64,000 bases of DNA from Escherichia coli (lineage in GTDB: Bacteria; Pseudomonadota; Gammaproteobacteria; Enterobacterales; Enterobacteriaceae): NCBI RefSeq assembly GCF_030384885.1, contig NZ_CP128613.1, one strand, 5' to 3'. Position numbers and translations under genes: made by a program. Positions 7,124 to 31,341 of the stretch are shown piece by piece (positions within the stretch are counted from its first letter, which is position 1; every line of letters starts with the position of its first letter). A model generated the notes under the pieces. That model was not told the DNA's origin and ran no database searches. It saw only the letters and a list, made by a program, of their open reading frames with translations.

Positions 7124-7855
7124 TTAGCCCAAATCGCCAAAACGCACTTGTAGCGCGGTAATGGCGGTGAGTGCAGTTGTCTCAGTACGCAAAACGCGAG
7201 GTCCCAACAGGATATCAGTAAATTGATAGCGGGCAGTCATGGCAATTTCATCTGCCGATAAACCGCCTTCCGGGCCAATTAGCAGGCGGACGCGTTCAAC
7301 CGGTAACGGCAACGTATTGATGCTGTTACTGGCGCGCGGGTGAAGATTCAGTTTCAGTCCTTCATCCTGCTCTGCACACCAGGCTTCCAGATCCATCGCT
7401 GGACGGATTTCCGGCACCCGGTTACGACCACACTGCTCACAGGCAGCAATTGCAATCTTCTGCCACTGCTGGAGCTTCTTGTTCAGACGTTCACTATCCA
7501 GTTTAACGCCGCAACGCTCAGAAAAAAGTGGCGTAATGAGGCTTACACCGAGTTCGATCGATTTCTGGATCGTAAATTCCATTTTTTCGCCACGCGACAT
7601 CACCTGACCGAGGTGAATATGCAGCGGAGATTCACGATCGTCGAGTTGGCCTTCCAGCACTTTCACTTCCACGCTTTTTTTGCTGGCGCTGGTAATTTCG
7701 GCGTCAAAGACCTGGTTGCTGCCGTCAAATAATTGCAACGCCTGCCCCGGCCCCATACGCAGTACGCGCCCGATATGGTTGGCGGCATCTTCGCAAAGCG
7801 CGATGTGAGAATGGCTGGTCAGTGGTTCAGGATGATAAATGCGGGGGATACGCAT
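7124..7855 (-). CDS. rsmE: 16S rRNA (uracil1498-N3)-methyltransferase
   Basis: 243 aa from internal Met [12 protein letters not shown] of a 252-aa ORF; synteny. Confidence 0.85.
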
Positions 7856-7934
7856 AGTTAAAAATCCGCGTCGTCTCCCCACGCGGTTGTACGCGTGGGG
7901 TAGGGGTTAACAAAAAGAATCCCGCTAGTGTAGG

Positions 7935-8642
7935 TTAGCTCTTTCGCGCCTGGCAAGCGCGTTGCACATACGGGTTATGATTGCCCTGCACCTTCGCGAT
8001 GCGTTCATCGCGCTCGCACTCCCAGTCGGTAACCGGATACATCTTGTTCCATGCGTTAAACAGCTGCGTTTGCTGGCGAGAGAGTGTCAGGTTGTATTGG
8101 TCACGCATATAGAAGTAGGTGCGCGCAATGGCACCGCGTGCACGTGCTGGTGGCTCGGCGACTTTTTCTTTGAAATCGACCTTCATAGCGCATTGACCGT
8201 ACTGGCCTTCGCCGCCATTCCACTGGCTGTACATAAAGTTGCCGCGATCGCCATTCACCTCGCCGACTGACGGTTGCAGGTTATGCATATCGCTTTCCAT
8301 CTTGCGATAGACCGGATCTTTGGCACAGTTTTTACGTCCACCGTCCTGCCAGCACTGGCGCTGGTGACCGAACTGCCAGGCGGGAACAACGTGTTCCCAC
8401 TCTACGCGGTTGGCGCGGTTTTCATTTTTGCGCACCTGATAGCCGCACGATTGCAGATCGACAACGCCTTTTTTGCCCTGCCAGTCAATTTTACATCCGC
8501 AGTAAAACGTACCCGGCGCGTCAGCGTGGATTTTTACCGCCGCGGCTTTCGCCTGAGAAAAACTATTGATACCTTCGGCCAACGTCGGGCCGGAAAATGC
8601 TGCGCTCAGTACCACCGCAGCAATAGACAAATAACGGTACAT
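7935..8642 (-). CDS. endA: Periplasmic DNA-specific endonuclease I
   Basis: 235-aa ORF with signal peptide [22 protein letters not shown]; synteny. Confidence 0.9.
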
Positions 8643-25682: not shown

Positions 25683-26192
25683 ATGGCGACGCTGACAGAA
25701 GATGATGTGCTTGAGCAACTGGACGCACAGGACAATTTATTGTCATTTATGAAAACTGCACATGCCATTTTGCTCCAGGGGATACGCCAGTTTCTGCCGT
25801 CGCTGTTTGTCGATAACGATGAAGAGATCGTGGAATATGCAGTGAAGCCGTTACTCGCTCAAAGCGGCCCGCTTGACGATATTGATGTTGCGCTACGTTT
25901 GATTTTTGCACTGGGGAAAATGGACAAATGGCTGTACGCCGATATCACGCACTTTTCCCAGTTCTGGCATTACCTGAATGAACAGGATGAAACGCCCGGA
26001 TTTGCCGATGACATTACCTGGGATTTTATCAGCAACGTCAATAGCATAACCCGCAATGCGACGCTCTATGACGCGTTAAAAGCGATGAAGTTCGCTGATT
26101 TCGCCGTCTGGTCAGAGGTGCGTTTTAGTGGGATGGTCAAAACGGCGCTGACGCTGGCAGTAACGACCACCTTAAAGGAATTAACGCCGTGA
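25683..26192 (+). CDS. yggD: MtlR-like protein YggD (annotated as fumarase E in E. coli)
   Basis: 169-aa ORF MATLTEDDVLEQLDAQDNLLSF; synteny. Confidence 0.75.
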   Translation: MATLTEDDVLEQLDAQDNLLSFMKTAHAILLQGIRQFLPSLFVDNDEEIVEYAVKPLLAQSGPLDDIDVALRLIFALGKMDKWLYADITHFSQFWHYLNEQDETPGFADDITWDFISNVNSITRNATLYDALKAMKFADFAVWSEVRFSGMVKTALTLAVTTTLKELTP

Positions 26193-26902
26193 AAATTGAC
26201 TTAACGGTGAATGGTCTGAAGGTACAAGCACAGTACCATGTTGATGAGATAGAAAATGTACATAAACCGTTGCTGCGTATGTTGGCGGCCTTACAGACGG
26301 TAAATCCGCAGCGGCGTACCGTGGTTTTTCTTTGCGCTCCGCCGGGGACGGGTAAATCTACCCTAACCACTTTCTGGGAATATCTCACGCAACAAGACCC
26401 GGAACTACCCACTATTCAGACGCTGCCGATGGATGGTTTTCACCATTACAATAACTGGCTGGATGCGCATCAATTGCGCCCCTTTAAAGGCGCACCAGAG
26501 ACATTCGATGTGGCAAAACTGGTGGAAAATCTGCGCCAGGTAATGGAAGGGGATTGTACGTGGCCGCAGTACGATCGACAAAAGCATGAGCCTGTTGAAG
26601 ATGCGTTGCACGTTACCGCACCACTCGTCATCGTCGAAGGAAACTGGTTGTTGCTGGACGACGAGAAGTGGTGCCAGCTTGCGCAATTTTGTGATTTCTC
26701 GATCTTTATCAACGCGCCAGCTACTGCGTTGCAGGAACGACTGGTGGGGCGCAAGCTGGCGGGAGGGTTATCGCTGGCAGACGCAGAAGCCTTTTATGAC
26801 CGTACCGATGGGCCGAATGTTCGCCGGGTGCTGGAAGAGAGTCTGCCTGCAAATTTGACCTTAATGATGACCGCTACGGGTGAATATCGTCTGGTGGATT
26901 AA
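26189..26902 (+). CDS. yggC: Putative P-loop kinase YggC
   Basis: 237-aa ORF with Walker A PPGTGKST; 4-nt overlap with yggD. Confidence 0.75.
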   Translation: MKIDLTVNGLKVQAQYHVDEIENVHKPLLRMLAALQTVNPQRRTVVFLCAPPGTGKSTLTTFWEYLTQQDPELPTIQTLPMDGFHHYNNWLDAHQLRPFKGAPETFDVAKLVENLRQVMEGDCTWPQYDRQKHEPVEDALHVTAPLVIVEGNWLLLDDEKWCQLAQFCDFSIFINAPATALQERLVGRKLAGGLSLADAEAFYDRTDGPNVRRVLEESLPANLTLMMTATGEYRLVD

Positions 26903-27584
26903 CGTTCCTGATTACACCATCTTCCAGTCGCACCACACGAGAGAAATGACGCCGGGTAAATGCGGCGTCATGACTGATTGCTACGACGCTCGTGCCTCGC
27001 TGGCGGCACTTTTCCAGCCAGCTTTCAAACACGCTCATCCAATTTTCGTCAAAATCCCGACTCGGCTCGTCCAGCAGCAATAGCGGCGGAGAGAGTGCTT
27101 CCAGGCAGGCGACGGCGACCATCCGTCGCTGCGCACTATGCAGATCTAACGGATGCGCGCTGGCAGTGTCTGCTAACTGACAGCATTGCAGGGCAGCATT
27201 GGTACGTTGAGTGATTTCATCCGCCAGGCATTTTTGCAGTTTCAAACCAAATGCGATCTCGTCAGCGACGGTGCTGTGAAAAAGCTGGTTTTCCGCTTCC
27301 TGAAACAGTACGCCAATCTTTGCTGCACGTTGGCGGTTTTTCAGGTTTTTCATCGCCTGTTGTTGCAGTATAACCGTACCGGTTGTGGGCGTAAGAAGAC
27401 CTGCCATTACTCGTAACAGCGTCGATTTTCCCGCGCCATTGTCGCCGGTCAGCGCCAACCATTCACCTTGTTTGAGTTGCAGAGAAATGTCGCAAAGACA
27501 ATCCGTTGCCGCGCCAGGCCAGCGATAAGACATCTGATTTAACGTTAACATAGTGGCTGGAGCGCTCCGTTTTGCAATTGCCAC
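26874..27584 (-). CDS. ECF/ABC transporter ATPase subunit (A2-like, degenerate signature motif)
   Basis: 236-aa ORF (alternative start Met12 at 27551, overlapping upstream stop as ATGnTAA); Walker A GDNGAGKST, Walker B LLLLDEP, H-loop ISHD; signature LHSAQRR instead of LSGGQ; 3' end overlaps yggC convergently. Confidence 0.75.
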   Translation of the reverse strand: MAIAKRSAPATMLTLNQMSYRWPGAATDCLCDISLQLKQGEWLALTGDNGAGKSTLLRVMAGLLTPTTGTVILQQQAMKNLKNRQRAAKIGVLFQEAENQLFHSTVADEIAFGLKLQKCLADEITQRTNAALQCCQLADTASAHPLDLHSAQRRMVAVACLEALSPPLLLLDEPSRDFDENWMSVFESWLEKCRQRGTSVVAISHDAAFTRRHFSRVVRLEDGVIRNVNPPDDIHP

Positions 27585-28228
27585 GCTTGCTGGCAGTAGT
27601 TCAGGAAAGGTGTGCGATGACGTTCAAAAAGAATAATCAGCGAACCACGTTCAAACGCCCAGTGTTGTAAGCGCTGCAACAGCATTTCGCTGGCCTGCGG
27701 CGTCAGGCGACTAAAGGCTTCATCAAGAATTAATAGTTTTGGCTGCATCGCGATGGCGCAGGCGATGACCACGCGCTGTGTCTCTCCACCGGAGAGTGTT
27801 GCCGGGTGACGATGGCGCAACGGCTGGCACTCGGTCAGAGTCAGGGCGGCATCAATCCGCGCCATAATCTCCTCTTCAGCAAGACACAGATTTTCTGGCC
27901 CAAAGGCAACTTCTTCTTCCACGCTAAAGGTACAGCCGGAGAGCTGCAAATAGGGCGATTGCTGAACGAGCTGGATGGTGGCGGATTGTTCATTAAGCGG
28001 GAGATACCCAATGGGCGTACCGAGAAGCGTCCCCGTGCCGGTTATCTCTCCTGGCAGAAAGTCCGGATACCAGCCCGCCATCAGTTGCGCCAGCGTACTT
28101 TTGCCACAGCCGTTGTCGCCAAAGATGGCGACTATCCCCGGTTTGACATAGTGAAAGTCATAACAGAACGGAGGGTGCGTTGAGTGTGTCGGGCAATAGC
28201 GAAACTGTTCTAACGTAACCATATCCAC
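27545..28228 (-). CDS. ECF/ABC transporter ATPase subunit (A1-like)
   Basis: 227-aa ORF; Walker A GDNGCGKST, signature LSGGETQR, Walker B LLILDEA. Confidence 0.75.
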   Translation of the reverse strand: MDMVTLEQFRYCPTHSTHPPFCYDFHYVKPGIVAIFGDNGCGKSTLAQLMAGWYPDFLPGEITGTGTLLGTPIGYLPLNEQSATIQLVQQSPYLQLSGCTFSVEEEVAFGPENLCLAEEEIMARIDAALTLTECQPLRHRHPATLSGGETQRVVIACAIAMQPKLLILDEAFSRLTPQASEMLLQRLQHWAFERGSLIILFERHRTPFLNYCQQAWQLQNGALQPLC

Positions 28229-28917
28229 GCTCCGAATTCTGCCAGCATCAGCAAGATCATGGCGTAACGTGCCACTTTTTCCAGGTTACTGTCAGGCGGT
28301 GCCCATAACGTAGTGCGCCGGTTGTGGATCCGAAATGCCCGCATATCCAGCGCCGCACCACGGATAGCCAGATCGTTTAGCGCATTGTGTGTTAGCGGAA
28401 TAATTAGCGCGGGTATAGCACGTAAACGCTGATACCAGCCCTCATCCAGCGGCACGCCACGGGCGCGCTGCGCTTCATGAATAATCGCTAATTGCCGTTT
28501 TAACTGCTCAACGACCAACAAAGGCCCGGCGAACAGATAAGCGACGCCCGGCGGCAGGCGAGAAGCAAACAAAGCGCGGATAAAACGTTGCACTGGGACG
28601 AATTGCATCCACAACTGCGAGGTTGAAACAATCGCGAGAATCCGCAGCCAGAGCGTAATAGCATGCGTCCACCGTTCTGGCGAGCGTGGCGTGCCGTTTA
28701 GCCATTCTGTCAGCCAGCCACCGTGTACCAGCCACAGTCCAGCCCCCAGCGAGAACATCAGCCAGACAACATATTTTGCCCGCCGCCGCGTGGCCTTTAG
28801 CGCAATAAGGCAGAAAAAGGTCGCCGCGCTATAGACTGTCAGTATTGTCTGTGTGGGCAGGATAAGCGTGGTGCAGGCCGCCAGCGCCCACAGCGTTAGG
28901 GATGTAAACGGATGCAT
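28210..28917 (-). CDS. ECF transporter transmembrane (T) component, CbiQ/EcfT family
   Basis: 235-aa polytopic ORF with C-terminal AQRARG and AIRGAALDMRAF motifs typical of EcfT; start abuts stop of upstream gene. Confidence 0.75.
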   Translation of the reverse strand: MHPFTSLTLWALAACTTLILPTQTILTVYSAATFFCLIALKATRRRAKYVVWLMFSLGAGLWLVHGGWLTEWLNGTPRSPERWTHAITLWLRILAIVSTSQLWMQFVPVQRFIRALFASRLPPGVAYLFAGPLLVVEQLKRQLAIIHEAQRARGVPLDEGWYQRLRAIPALIIPLTHNALNDLAIRGAALDMRAFRIHNRRTTLWAPPDSNLEKVARYAMILLMLAEFGAWIWLR

Positions 28918-29499
28918 TTAGCGCACGGCAGCCATTGCCGGAAAATGGCGCGTGGTGCGAATCGGCAGCTGACGCAGTAAAAGCCAGACAATCACCGCTG
29001 TAAGAATTTTATCGACCAGGTTTGCGCCTATCACCGTAATCGCCACCGACTCCACCAGGTTTTGCCCCATAGAGTGCATCCAGGCAACGAACAAATCGGC
29101 TCCGCTACCGGTGACACCGCCGAACAGCGCAGTACGCAGCGGTACAGCGACGACCGTTACTGCAAGCGTAATAATCACGCCGCTGACAACGACTTTTGGC
29201 AGGGTGCGAAACCAACCCGCTCGCGCCAGCCAACCGGCGACCAAGCCAATAACCATCGCCACGGGGGCAAAGGCGGCGGCGATCGGGTCGGTGAGCAATC
29301 CCCAGAGTAAATTGGTCAGTAAGCCGGTCAGCATCCCGATCACCGGACCAAGCAGTACCGCGCTAATAAGTGTGCCGATGGAGTCGAGAAATATAGGTAA
29401 TTTGACCATGCTGGCCAGTTGCCCGCCAATCATATTGATGGCGATAGAGATAACAATCAACACCAGTGCTTGACTGGAAAAGTGGCGACGCGCCATAAG
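28918..29499 (-). CDS. ECF transporter substrate-specific (S) component-like membrane protein
   Basis: About 193 aa from Met33 (ORF could start at 29595); about six TM helices; LPIFLDSIGT motif resembling ECF S components (YkoE/ThiW-like); substrate unknown. Confidence 0.65.
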   Translation of the reverse strand, partial: LMARRHFSSQALVLIVISIAINMIGGQLASMVKLPIFLDSIGTLISAVLLGPVIGMLTGLLTNLLWGLLTDPIAAAFAPVAMVIGLVAGWLARAGWFRTLPKVVVSGVIITLAVTVVAVPLRTALFGGVTGSGADLFVAWMHSMGQNLVESVAITVIGANLVDKILTAVIVWLLLRQLPIRTTRHFPAMAAVR

Positions 29500-29518
29500 A
29501 AAACCTCTCTGAAAGTAG

Positions 29519-29950
29519 TTATTTAACGGGGGAAATATGCAATTCGTCGTAACCAGAAAGCGCGCAAGGTTGGCGGCTAAACGCCAGCTCCTCAAGGCAG
29601 CCGATCACCAGTTCAAGCGTGGTCCGCACGGTACAGCCGGGCATCATATGACCGCCAAGTATCGTGCCGTGTGGATCGGAAACGCAGAGATGAAGATGTT
29701 CACCACTCTGTTCCAGTGTGCCGTTCAATGCGATGACTTCGAACTTACCGCTTAGTAGGGCCGTGTTTTCTTGCCCGGCATAGCGTAAGGCGACGTCAGT
29801 CAGACTGCCGGTACAACCTGCAATCCACGCGGCGTGGAGTTGTTGTTGCTGCGCGAAGGCGCGTAATTGGGAGAGAACTTCCTGTCCTGGGAGCAGGCGC
29901 AGCGCGTAAAAGCGTGCGGAGGAAGAATATGGGTAGGGCAATGTCATCAT
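29519..29950 (-). CDS. DUF296/PPC-domain protein (first gene of the ECF module)
   Basis: 143-aa ORF; pattern RLLPGQEVLSQL...AWIAGCTGSL...LSGKFEVIALNGTL...HLHLCVSD...GGHMMPGCTVRTTLELVI fits the PPC (DUF296) fold consensus. Confidence 0.7.
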   Translation of the reverse strand: MMTLPYPYSSSARFYALRLLPGQEVLSQLRAFAQQQQLHAAWIAGCTGSLTDVALRYAGQENTALLSGKFEVIALNGTLEQSGEHLHLCVSDPHGTILGGHMMPGCTVRTTLELVIGCLEELAFSRQPCALSGYDELHISPVK

Positions 29951-30321
29951 TGGAGTACTCCGAAACTCGGACGTATTGCGGATAATATCGACGCTGCATC
30001 AGTCATATTCTGATATAAGTCAGGGTTTGTGACGGCACAACGAAAAGATTTTGCTACGCTTATTCGTGATTCTGCAAAGTGGAATAAATTCCACAGGGGC
30101 GGGGCTGAAAACGTGACGTAAGTCAGATAATTGTCTTCTTTGACTGGACAATCATTCCTTTTATTCCACGTTTCGCTTATCCTAGCTGAAGCGTTTCAGT
30201 CGATTAAATGTTCGACAATTAACCAATCAGTCGCAGTTTGCGACAGGTAAGGTTTCCCCGGACGATTTGCTGGATTACTCTGTCTGGCAAATTTGCTCAG
30301 GGAAAACCTTGCAGGAGATCT

Positions 30322-31341
30322 ATGACCGTACGCGTAGCGATAAATGGCTTCGGTCGCATCGGGCGTAATGTGGTTCGTGCTTTGTATGAATCCGGACGCC
30401 GGGCGGAAATTACCGTGGTGGCAATCAACGAACTGGCGGATGCTGCGGGCATGGCGCATTTGTTGAAGTATGACACCAGTCATGGCCGTTTTGCATGGGA
30501 AGTACGACAGGAACGCGATCAACTTTTTGTTGGTGATGACGCCATCCGCGTATTGCACGAACGTTCACTGCAATCGCTCCCATGGCGTGAACTGGGCGTC
30601 GATGTGGTTCTTGACTGCACCGGCGTATATGGCTCCCGCGAGCATGGCGAAGCGCATATTGCCGCCGGGGCCAAAAAAGTGCTCTTTTCACATCCTGGTA
30701 GTAACGATCTCGACGCGACCGTTGTTTACGGCGTCAATCAGGATCAACTTCGTGCGGAACACCGCATCGTTTCTAACGCTTCCTGTACCACGAATTGCAT
30801 AATTCCCGTCATCAAATTGTTAGATGATGCGTACGGTATTGAGTCCGGCACTGTGACCACAATTCACTCCGCCATGCACGATCAACAGGTTATTGATGCA
30901 TACCATCCTGACCTGCGTCGCACCCGGGCAGCCAGCCAGTCGATCATTCCGGTCGATACTAAACTGGCCGCCGGTATCACACGATTTTTTCCGCAATTTA
31001 ATGATCGCTTTGAAGCGATTGCGGTACGTGTGCCAACCATAAATGTGACGGCAATCGATTTAAGCGTGACGGTGAAGAAACCTGTAAAAGCCAATGAAGT
31101 CAACCTGTTGCTGCAAAAAGCAGCACAAGGTGCATTTCATGGTATAGTTGACTATACGGAATTGCCGTTGGTCTCTGTAGATTTTAACCACGATCCGCAC
31201 AGTGCCATTGTCGATGGCACCCAAACCCGGGTCAGTGGCGCACACCTGATCAAAACGTTGGTCTGGTGCGATAACGAATGGGGCTTTGCTAACCGAATGC
31301 TCGACACGACGTTAGCTATGGCTACTGTTGCTTTCAGGTAA
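30322..31341 (+). CDS. epd: D-erythrose-4-phosphate dehydrogenase
   Basis: 339 aa from [25 protein letters not shown]; GAPDH-family; track ORF has a 28-codon upstream extension. Confidence 0.9.

Follow-up and report, generated by a model that had tools for sequence, protein, structure and literature searches.

The window analysed here is a stretch of 64,000 nucleotides from the Escherichia coli chromosome (assembly GCF_030384885.1, contig NZ_CP128613.1), in which a minus-strand block of five genes lies between yggC and epd. Strain 2013C-4282 matches this region with 100% identity. The genes are ordered as a PCC-domain gene, the S component, the T component and two ATPases of a transporter of the energy-coupling factor (ECF) type; the upstream ATPase is called A1 and the downstream one A2. 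Our analysis indicates that A1 and A2 are probably the non-identical ATPases of a dedicated group-I-like ECF transporter, in which one ATP site is consensus and the other is degenerate. The initial annotation had predicted such a heterodimer from the signature motifs. The prediction is supported by a complementary defect that was found in A1, by natural fusions of the two ATPases and by a signature pattern that is invariant in the family.

A1 (27545..28222, minus strand) and A2 (26874..27551, minus strand) both pass the cut-off of 25 for PF00005, the ATP-binding cassette (ABC) family ABC_tran, with 78.2 and 95.3 bits, respectively. Their open reading frames (ORFs) are adjacent and extend over 27545-28228 and 26874-27584. 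In A1, the start ATG 28222 has GGAG 7 nt upstream. In A2, the two starts described previously, 27584 and 27551, both exist, and the second, ATG 27551, is the RefSeq start and gives the ML- N-terminus that orthologues share. It lies in an ATGTTAA overlap (27545..27551, minus strand), where the start codon of A2 runs over the stop codon of A1, an arrangement for translational coupling. GTG 27584 was rejected as a start because it has no Shine-Dalgarno sequence, and GTG 28228 of A1 because it has no usable Shine-Dalgarno spacing; in both cases RefSeq and the N-termini of orthologues favour ATG. The supported starts therefore give 225 aa for each ATPase, and both are short, as had been stated. A2 reads through the H-loop (AISHD) to its stop codon without a truncating frameshift, and its length is similar to that of most enterobacterial orthologues (214-229 aa).

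A1 and A2 are 35% identical across 170 aa (BLASTP), and their best NCBIfam families are ECF_ATPase_1, ECF_ATPase_2 and cbiO. Comparison with the EcfA1/EcfA2 and CbiO families left both proteins below all equivalog cut-offs. Against EcfA1 (TIGR04520, cut-off 315), A1 scored 118 and A2 141.8; against EcfA2 (TIGR04521, cut-off 330), the scores were 103 and 149.1; and against the CbiO subfamily TIGR01166 (cut-off 211.8), they were 108.5 and 127.2. Judged by the curated cut-offs of NCBIfam, A1 and A2 would not be classed as EcfA1/EcfA2 or CbiO equivalogs. The AlphaFold2 model of A1 (pLDDT 93.7, pTM 0.91) has CbiO and EcfA chains as its top matches in the Protein Data Bank, with TM scores of 0.78-0.85.

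The two ATPases differ in which motifs they have kept (all motif coordinates are on the minus strand). In A1, Walker A is GDNGCGKST (aa 35-43; 28094..28120) with Lys41, the Q-loop Gln is present, and the ABC signature LSGGETQR (aa 143-150; 27773..27796) is canonical. Its Walker B, LLILDEA, keeps Asp167 and Glu168 and is followed by a D-loop, FSRLT, without Asp (27701..27736). The H-loop region of A1 reads LFERH (27617..27631), with Arg201 in the histidine column, so that both the H-loop and the D-loop are degenerate. In A2, the catalytic motifs are all canonical: Walker A GDNGAGKST (aa 36-44; 27420..27446), Walker B LLLLDEP with Asp161 and Glu162 and the D-loop SRDFD (27048..27083), and the H-loop AISHD with His194 (26967..26981). 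The signature of A2, LHSAQRR (aa 137-143; 27123..27143), is degenerate. The initial annotation had assigned Walker A, Walker B and the H-loop to both proteins; this holds for the two Walker motifs, whereas the H-loop histidine is present in A2 and replaced by Arg201 in A1.

The position of LHSAQ in A2, which had been read as equivalent to LSGGETQR of A1, was recovered by several alignments. HMMER aligned the A2 segment LHSAQRRMVAVA with LSGGQKQRIAIA of ABCB4 and ABCB1, which puts LHSAQ on LSGGQ, and BLASTP aligned the LHSAQ segment with LSGGETQRVVIA of A1, which contains LSGGE. MAFFT and hmmalign alignments likewise placed LHSAQ on the signature loop. The distance from the signature to the Walker B Asp in A2 is 24 residues, which is the canonical spacing. 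LHSAQ is homologous to the signature loop.

The assignment of Arg201 to the H-loop histidine column comes from four ungapped family alignments of A1. In the AlphaFold2 model of A1, the strand ahead of the H-loop stops at Glu200, the same place as Ser193 before His194 in A2. The neighbouring His202 was considered as the H-loop histidine, displaced by an insertion of one residue; HMMER pairwise comparison gave three registers here. This candidate was rejected because Arg fills the column without any gap in the family alignments and because His202 varies among orthologues, which have N, T, A, R, Q, S or K there.

An ABC site takes its Walker A and B and its A-, Q- and H-loops from one nucleotide-binding domain (NBD) and its signature from the partner NBD (PMC7756269). 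Because the site spans both NBDs, the signature defect of A2 and the H-loop defect of A1 share one composite site. The other site, built from the catalytic motifs of A2 and LSGGE of A1, is canonical by its motifs, save for the A1 D-loop at the dimer centre. Signature and H-loop changes usually go together in degenerate sites (PMC7756269), and D-loops are less conserved where one ABC site is degenerate (PMC7756269, PMC3971661).

We propose that A1 and A2 would pair head-to-tail on T and enclose two unequal ATP sites. The consensus site, with Walker A, the Q-loop, Glu162 and His194 of A2 and LSGGE of A1, would hydrolyse ATP and drive the transport cycle. The degenerate site, with Walker A, Walker B and Arg201 of A1 and LHSAQ of A2, would bind ATP and hydrolyse it slowly or not at all, and might act as a nucleotide-dependent hinge or as a regulatory site. 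Binding of ATP-Mg at the degenerate site would be expected because A1 keeps Lys41, Asp167, Glu168 and the Q-loop Gln. We infer the geometry of the heterodimer, the loss of hydrolysis at one site and the use of one ATP per cycle, whereas the motif pattern with its homology and conservation, the fusions and the purifying selection described below are observed.

The motif asymmetry is found well beyond E. coli. Searches with A2 and S for homologues had only near enterobacterial relatives among the matches listed and were used for local conservation. In 114 of 120 enterobacterial A2 homologues the signature reads LH[STA]AQ, with an out-of-register reading in the remaining six; the clusters of full-length 225-aa proteins hold thousands of member sequences. 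To cover the wider family, six S components were aligned and one genome per species was scanned, which yielded 80 loci. The proteobacterial loci came from Enterobacterales, Aeromonas, Wohlfahrtiimonas, Paracoccus and one betaproteobacterium, and the others from Desulfobacterota, Synergistaceae, Chloroflexota and Spirochaetaceae. In 70/88 loci the genes were ordered PCC, S, T, NBD, NBD, the remainder being fusions or cut contigs, and the A1 and A2 types always occurred together and in fixed order.

In this family, the LSGG signature is present in 85/85 first NBDs and in 0/83 second NBDs. The H-loop His shows the opposite distribution, being found in 82/83 second NBDs and only 6/85 first NBDs, where it is replaced by Arg (65), Gln (6) or Lys (4). 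The D-loop Asp is likewise present in 83/83 second and 10/85 first NBDs. The motifs for nucleotide and Mg binding are kept on both sides: Walker A is canonical in 78/85 first and 83/83 second NBDs, the Q-loop Gln is present in 85/85 and 83/83, and the Walker B Asp-Glu in 82/85 and 83/83. The asymmetry is a trait of the family and not the result of decay.

Compared with E. whittamii, where dS is unsaturated, the ratio of nonsynonymous to synonymous substitution rates (dN/dS) was 0.12 for A1, 0.21 for A2, 0.15 for T, 0.10 for PCC and 0.014 for S. Between genera, the ATPases had values of 0.07-0.16 with dS near saturation, and the overall range was 0.07-0.12 for A1 and 0.08-0.21 for A2. A1 and A2 are both under purifying selection. 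An individual disrupted copy was observed in E. albertii NBRC 107761 (L011 7212-7952), in which the A1 orthologue is divided into two ORFs of the same frame, 7212-7739 and 7740-7952. The split therefore reflects an in-frame stop, and A1 is probably inactivated in this strain.

In an exhaustive search of representatives at 50% identity, the next relatives turned out to be fusions, of the form A1-A2 in P0243 (503 aa) and T-A1-A2 in P0249 and P0271. Their first domains have LSGGEAQ, FSRLx and (F/L)ER, and their second domains have LHAGQ or LNSAE, (S/T)R(D/E)(F/L)D and I(S/T)HD. The persistence of the same motif pattern in naturally occurring A1-A2 and T-A1-A2 fusions points to 1:1 pairing of the two ATPases.

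The degree of degeneration differs among distant lineages. In Chloroflexota, the second signature is degenerate (LSLAW, LSLSD, LGYSG) and the first domain has His and a canonical D-loop. The first NBD of Desulfobacterota has Gln at the H-loop position, and that of Gammaproteobacteria has Arg or Lys together with FSRLT. This graded series suggests an order of events. The C-terminal helical extension, which is thought to keep the ATPase dimer together without ATP (PMC6828968), also varies. It has gone from both ATPases only in Enterobacteriaceae, Wohlfahrtiimonas and one further genome (L007), and it is present on both in Proteus, Providencia, Budvicia, Limnobaculum, Chloroflexota and Desulfobacterota (L047-L087). 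In Enterobacteriaceae, 22-35 residues remain after the H-loop, with about 25-30 in E. coli, whereas Proteus, Providencia, Budvicia, Chloroflexota and Desulfobacterota have about 70-90, with about 80 in the Proteus or Providencia orthologues.

Several points weigh against a pairing of a consensus with a degenerate site. A1 retains the catalytic Glu168, which is lost from many known degenerate sites, and has only the H-loop change of the two catalytic changes that are usual there. The role of the H-loop His might be taken over in part by Arg, Gln or Lys, and H-loop Gln/Asn variants keep transport in the consensus site of ABCC1 (PMC7756269). The deviant D-loop of A1 lies at the dimer centre, so that the consensus site might itself be somewhat unusual. 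The family counts are phylogenetically non-independent, since Enterobacterales account for about three quarters of them and a few of the metagenomic loci occur in duplicate. Furthermore, Walker A deviates to GANNSGK or GANDAGK in 7/85 first NBDs, so that some lineages may lack nucleotide binding at the A1-type site.

The leading alternative, although we consider it unlikely, is that both ATP sites are active and that LHSAQ and Arg201 are a co-evolved alternative chemistry, with Arg at the gamma-phosphate replacing His and the signature Ser/Gly. It fits the retention of Lys41, Asp167/Glu168 and the Q-loop Gln in A1. The replacements are themselves conserved, as LH[STA][AG]Q in A2 and as Glu-Arg in A1 (Arg in 65/85), which suggests a constrained role, and tolerance of Gln/Asn in the H-loop is known from other ABC proteins (PMC7756269). 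However, the Ser and the two Gly of the signature, ATP contacts in every ABC dimer characterised, are replaced in A2. In more distant members of the family the second signature is quite different (LSLAW, LGYSE, LDYYL), as would be expected of relaxed rather than redirected chemistry, and a change in signature and H-loop together marks non-hydrolytic sites elsewhere (PMC7756269).

It is less probable still that the degenerate site binds no nucleotide and serves purely as a protein-protein interface. The GANNSGK/GANDAGK variants of Walker A in 7/85 first NBDs and the absence of the D-loop Asp from most of them would agree with such a role, but the retention of Walker A, the Q-loop Gln and Walker B Asp-Glu in nearly all first NBDs (78/85, 85/85 and 82/85) is hard to explain without binding of nucleotide and Mg. 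A1 and A2 could also form separate homodimers, for example as alternative motors on one T/S pair, and the group I transporters BioMNY and CbiMNQO do have homodimeric ATPases (PMC6828968). We regard this arrangement as very improbable: single-chain A1-A2 and T-A1-A2 fusions occur naturally, the two genes are always together, in fixed order and translationally coupled, and both signatures would be degenerate in a homodimer of A2. Finally, mutational decay of an accessory island that is being lost in E. coli, to which absence of the island from K-12 and about 39% of complete E. coli genomes and occasional disrupted copies (the A1 stop in E. albertii L011 and a few truncated clusters) might point, is hardly credible as the origin of the odd A2 signature and is excluded because the signature is conserved in 120 enterobacterial homologues and degenerate in every lineage examined across several phyla, and because dN/dS is 0.07-0.21 with thousands of full-length 225-aa members.

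The pairing of a consensus with a degenerate site, which we prefer, may extend to tandem-NBD relatives. We took the 150 representatives nearest A2, of which 143 are tandem-NBD proteins (P0246-P0390 range); ranking by similarity to A2 could slightly favour proteins with a degenerate signature. In these 143, xSGG is present in 128 N-domains compared with 33 C-domains, and the H-loop His in 142 C-domains compared with 102 N-domains. Where the N-domain has lost its His, the C-domain signature tends to be degenerate as well (odds ratio 5.3, Fisher p ~0.004, uncorrected for phylogeny); the counts are phylogenetically non-independent. LSRGQ and LSRGE are the commonest variants. Seven tandem proteins that were sampled score best to ECF ATPase families in NCBIfam, and one protein, P0296, adjoins a QueT-type S component, the contigs of P0248 and P0267 being too short for gene context. 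Because of these motif counts in N- and C-domains, a degenerate site looks common in ECF-type tandem ATPases; it may even be the rule for the second site of fused ECF ATPases, and a degenerate second signature may be common in group-I-like ECF systems.

The membrane components support the ECF assignment. S, the substrate-binding membrane subunit (28918..29496, minus strand; 192 aa), passes the cut-off of 30.7 for PF12822 (ECF_trnsprt) with 34.6 and is called 'ECF transporter S component' in RefSeq. Its RefSeq start is 29496, with AGAGG 7 nt 5' of it. Against the NCBIfam CD3073-family (NF045596), S scores 135.5 bits over the full profile and does not reach the cut-off of 180; it is related to the CD3073 family and lies outside the equivalog. 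The S protein of E. coli is 57-77% identical to those of distant lineages, including metagenomic lineages with fused ATPases, and carries an invariant TGSGAD motif. Constraint on S is much stronger than on the other four genes (dN/dS 0.014-0.10 versus 0.06-0.21). T (28210..28917, minus strand; 235 aa) is annotated as an ECF T component by RefSeq and is marginally below the cut-off for Pfam CbiQ (23.3 versus 25). T components are defined by two three-residue signatures centred on Arg, with the consensus Ala-Arg-Gly, in cytoplasmic coupling helices (PMC3246461). Two such Arg-centred coupling motifs were found in T, A152-R153-G154 in 87/88 and R186 (IRG) in 85/88 sequences. By its S component, by T with the Arg motifs and by the ATPase fold, the system is an ECF-type transporter.

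The first gene of the operon (29519..29950, minus strand) encodes a PCC/PPC (DUF296) domain protein of 143 aa, which matches Pfam PF03479 with 95.8 bits and is named 'PPC domain-containing DNA-binding protein' in RefSeq. The solved structure of the Salmonella orthologue (2HX0/2NMU) is also titled 'putative DNA-binding protein'. The gene lies directly 5' of S in nearly all related loci, in several phyla. H85, H87 and H101 are invariant in 85/85 sequences, as are E71, E113, R18, R56, R126, Y134 and E136, and an archaeal relative holds zinc by three histidines (PMC1933227). The data suggest that the PCC protein is a metal-dependent partner of the transporter rather than a DNA binder. Its strict linkage to the transporter offers a pointer to the function of this domain, for which structures have been solved and no bacterial role is known.

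The five-gene block (window 26100-30300) is an accessory island. It was found in 3317 of 5426 complete E. coli genomes at a coverage of at least 80% and is missing in about 39%; K-12 is without the block, and epd directly follows yggC there. In the window, yggC (26189-26902, plus strand) adjoins A2 in convergent orientation, and the 3' ends of the two genes share 29 bases (26874-26902). In the yggC/fumE flanks, carriers and non-carriers share only about 89.7% identity, an unusual divergence for core genes of E. coli. A substrate hint was sought in an Rfam scan of 26000-30700 at E<=1, which found no riboswitch, and counts of promoters and terminators across 26600-30300 were at chance level. In two unrelated lineages, genes of a TAXI-type tripartite ATP-independent periplasmic (TRAP) transporter, an NMT1_3 binding protein and a fused DctM, adjoin the cassette (L008 7782-10796; L009/L010 1889-4735). 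These neighbours may be a hint to the pathway or the substrate.

A more speculative model, which we put forward tentatively and think less likely to be right than wrong, is that the PCC-linked ECF family works as a 'one-stroke' motor. Only A2 would turn over ATP, and the ATP held by A1 would be a permanent clasp between the ATPases. Such a clasp possibly allowed the loss of the C-terminal helices in Enterobacteriaceae, and the PCC protein with its invariant His triad would be a cytoplasmic enzyme or a receiver of the cargo. If true, this would be a five-part system of an undescribed type. The family is also a natural test case for a single-site ECF motor and bears on the number of ATP per cycle and on the equivalence of the sites. 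It spans Chloroflexota to E. coli, and its members may be split, fused or triple-fused and may have or lack the C-terminal dimerisation helices. The host is genetically tractable, and the island-free K-12 offers a clean background for expression.

Our search of the literature for this E. coli locus, its RefSeq accessions, 2HX0/CD3073 and degenerate ECF sites found no description, which is weak evidence since most subscription journals lay outside the search. ECF A units are described with standard NBD motifs (PMC3246461), and the only ECF asymmetry in the searched literature was that of nucleotide occupancy in ECF-FolT2 (PMC10368641).

Group II ECF transporters, such as Lactobacillus delbrueckii ECF-FolT2, that of L. 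brevis and EcfAA' of T. maritima, likewise consist of S, T and two different ATPases. Superposition of the A1 model on their EcfA/EcfA' chains gives TM scores of 0.78-0.85, and T here has both Arg-centred motifs. During turnover, ECF-FolT2 holds ATP in EcfA and ADP in EcfA' (PMC10368641), a functional asymmetry that echoes the hard-wired asymmetry predicted for A1/A2. However, both group II ATPases have LSGGQ and the His motif (PMC3246461, PMC10368641), which is not so in A1/A2. The E. coli module also differs from group II in that it is dedicated to one S gene, with a PCC-domain gene always alongside, and in that its ATPases are without the C-terminal helical extension. In group I (CbiMNQO, NikMNQO, BioMNY, YkoEDC), the S, T and A genes are in one operon, as they are here. 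Short ATPases without C-terminal helices, for example BioM and NikO, also occur in group I (PMC6828968), and so do fused double ATPases such as YkoD (PMC5037267), matching the fusions among relatives of the A1/A2 system. The A units of group I can be homodimers, heterodimers or fused domains (PMC6828968). The present system differs in having two diverged genes with complementary motif defects.

The pairing of a consensus with a degenerate site is well known in heterodimeric ABC exporters (PMC3971661, PMC7756269). TM287/288, TmrAB, TAP1/2 (ABCB2/B3) and CFTR/ABCC combine a signature defect with an H-loop defect of the partner on one composite site, like A1/A2. These exporters are of type I (type IV fold), and each of their NBDs has transmembrane domains fused to it or paired with it, whereas the system described here is an importer of the ECF type that has one T scaffold. 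Degenerate sites of exporters are usually also without the Walker B Glu, which A1 keeps. Among importers, RbsA and NupO of Bacillus subtilis are fused ATPases with two non-identical NBDs and a degenerate site, one of which has a signature off LSGGQ (PMC11466899), as in A1/A2. They belong to the class that depends on a substrate-binding protein, and their second Walker A has lost its Lys, unlike A1 and A2, in which both Walker A motifs are intact. A1 and A2 would thus represent a family of ECF importers in which the degeneracy of one ATP site is hard-wired, a design that is itself known from ABC exporters.

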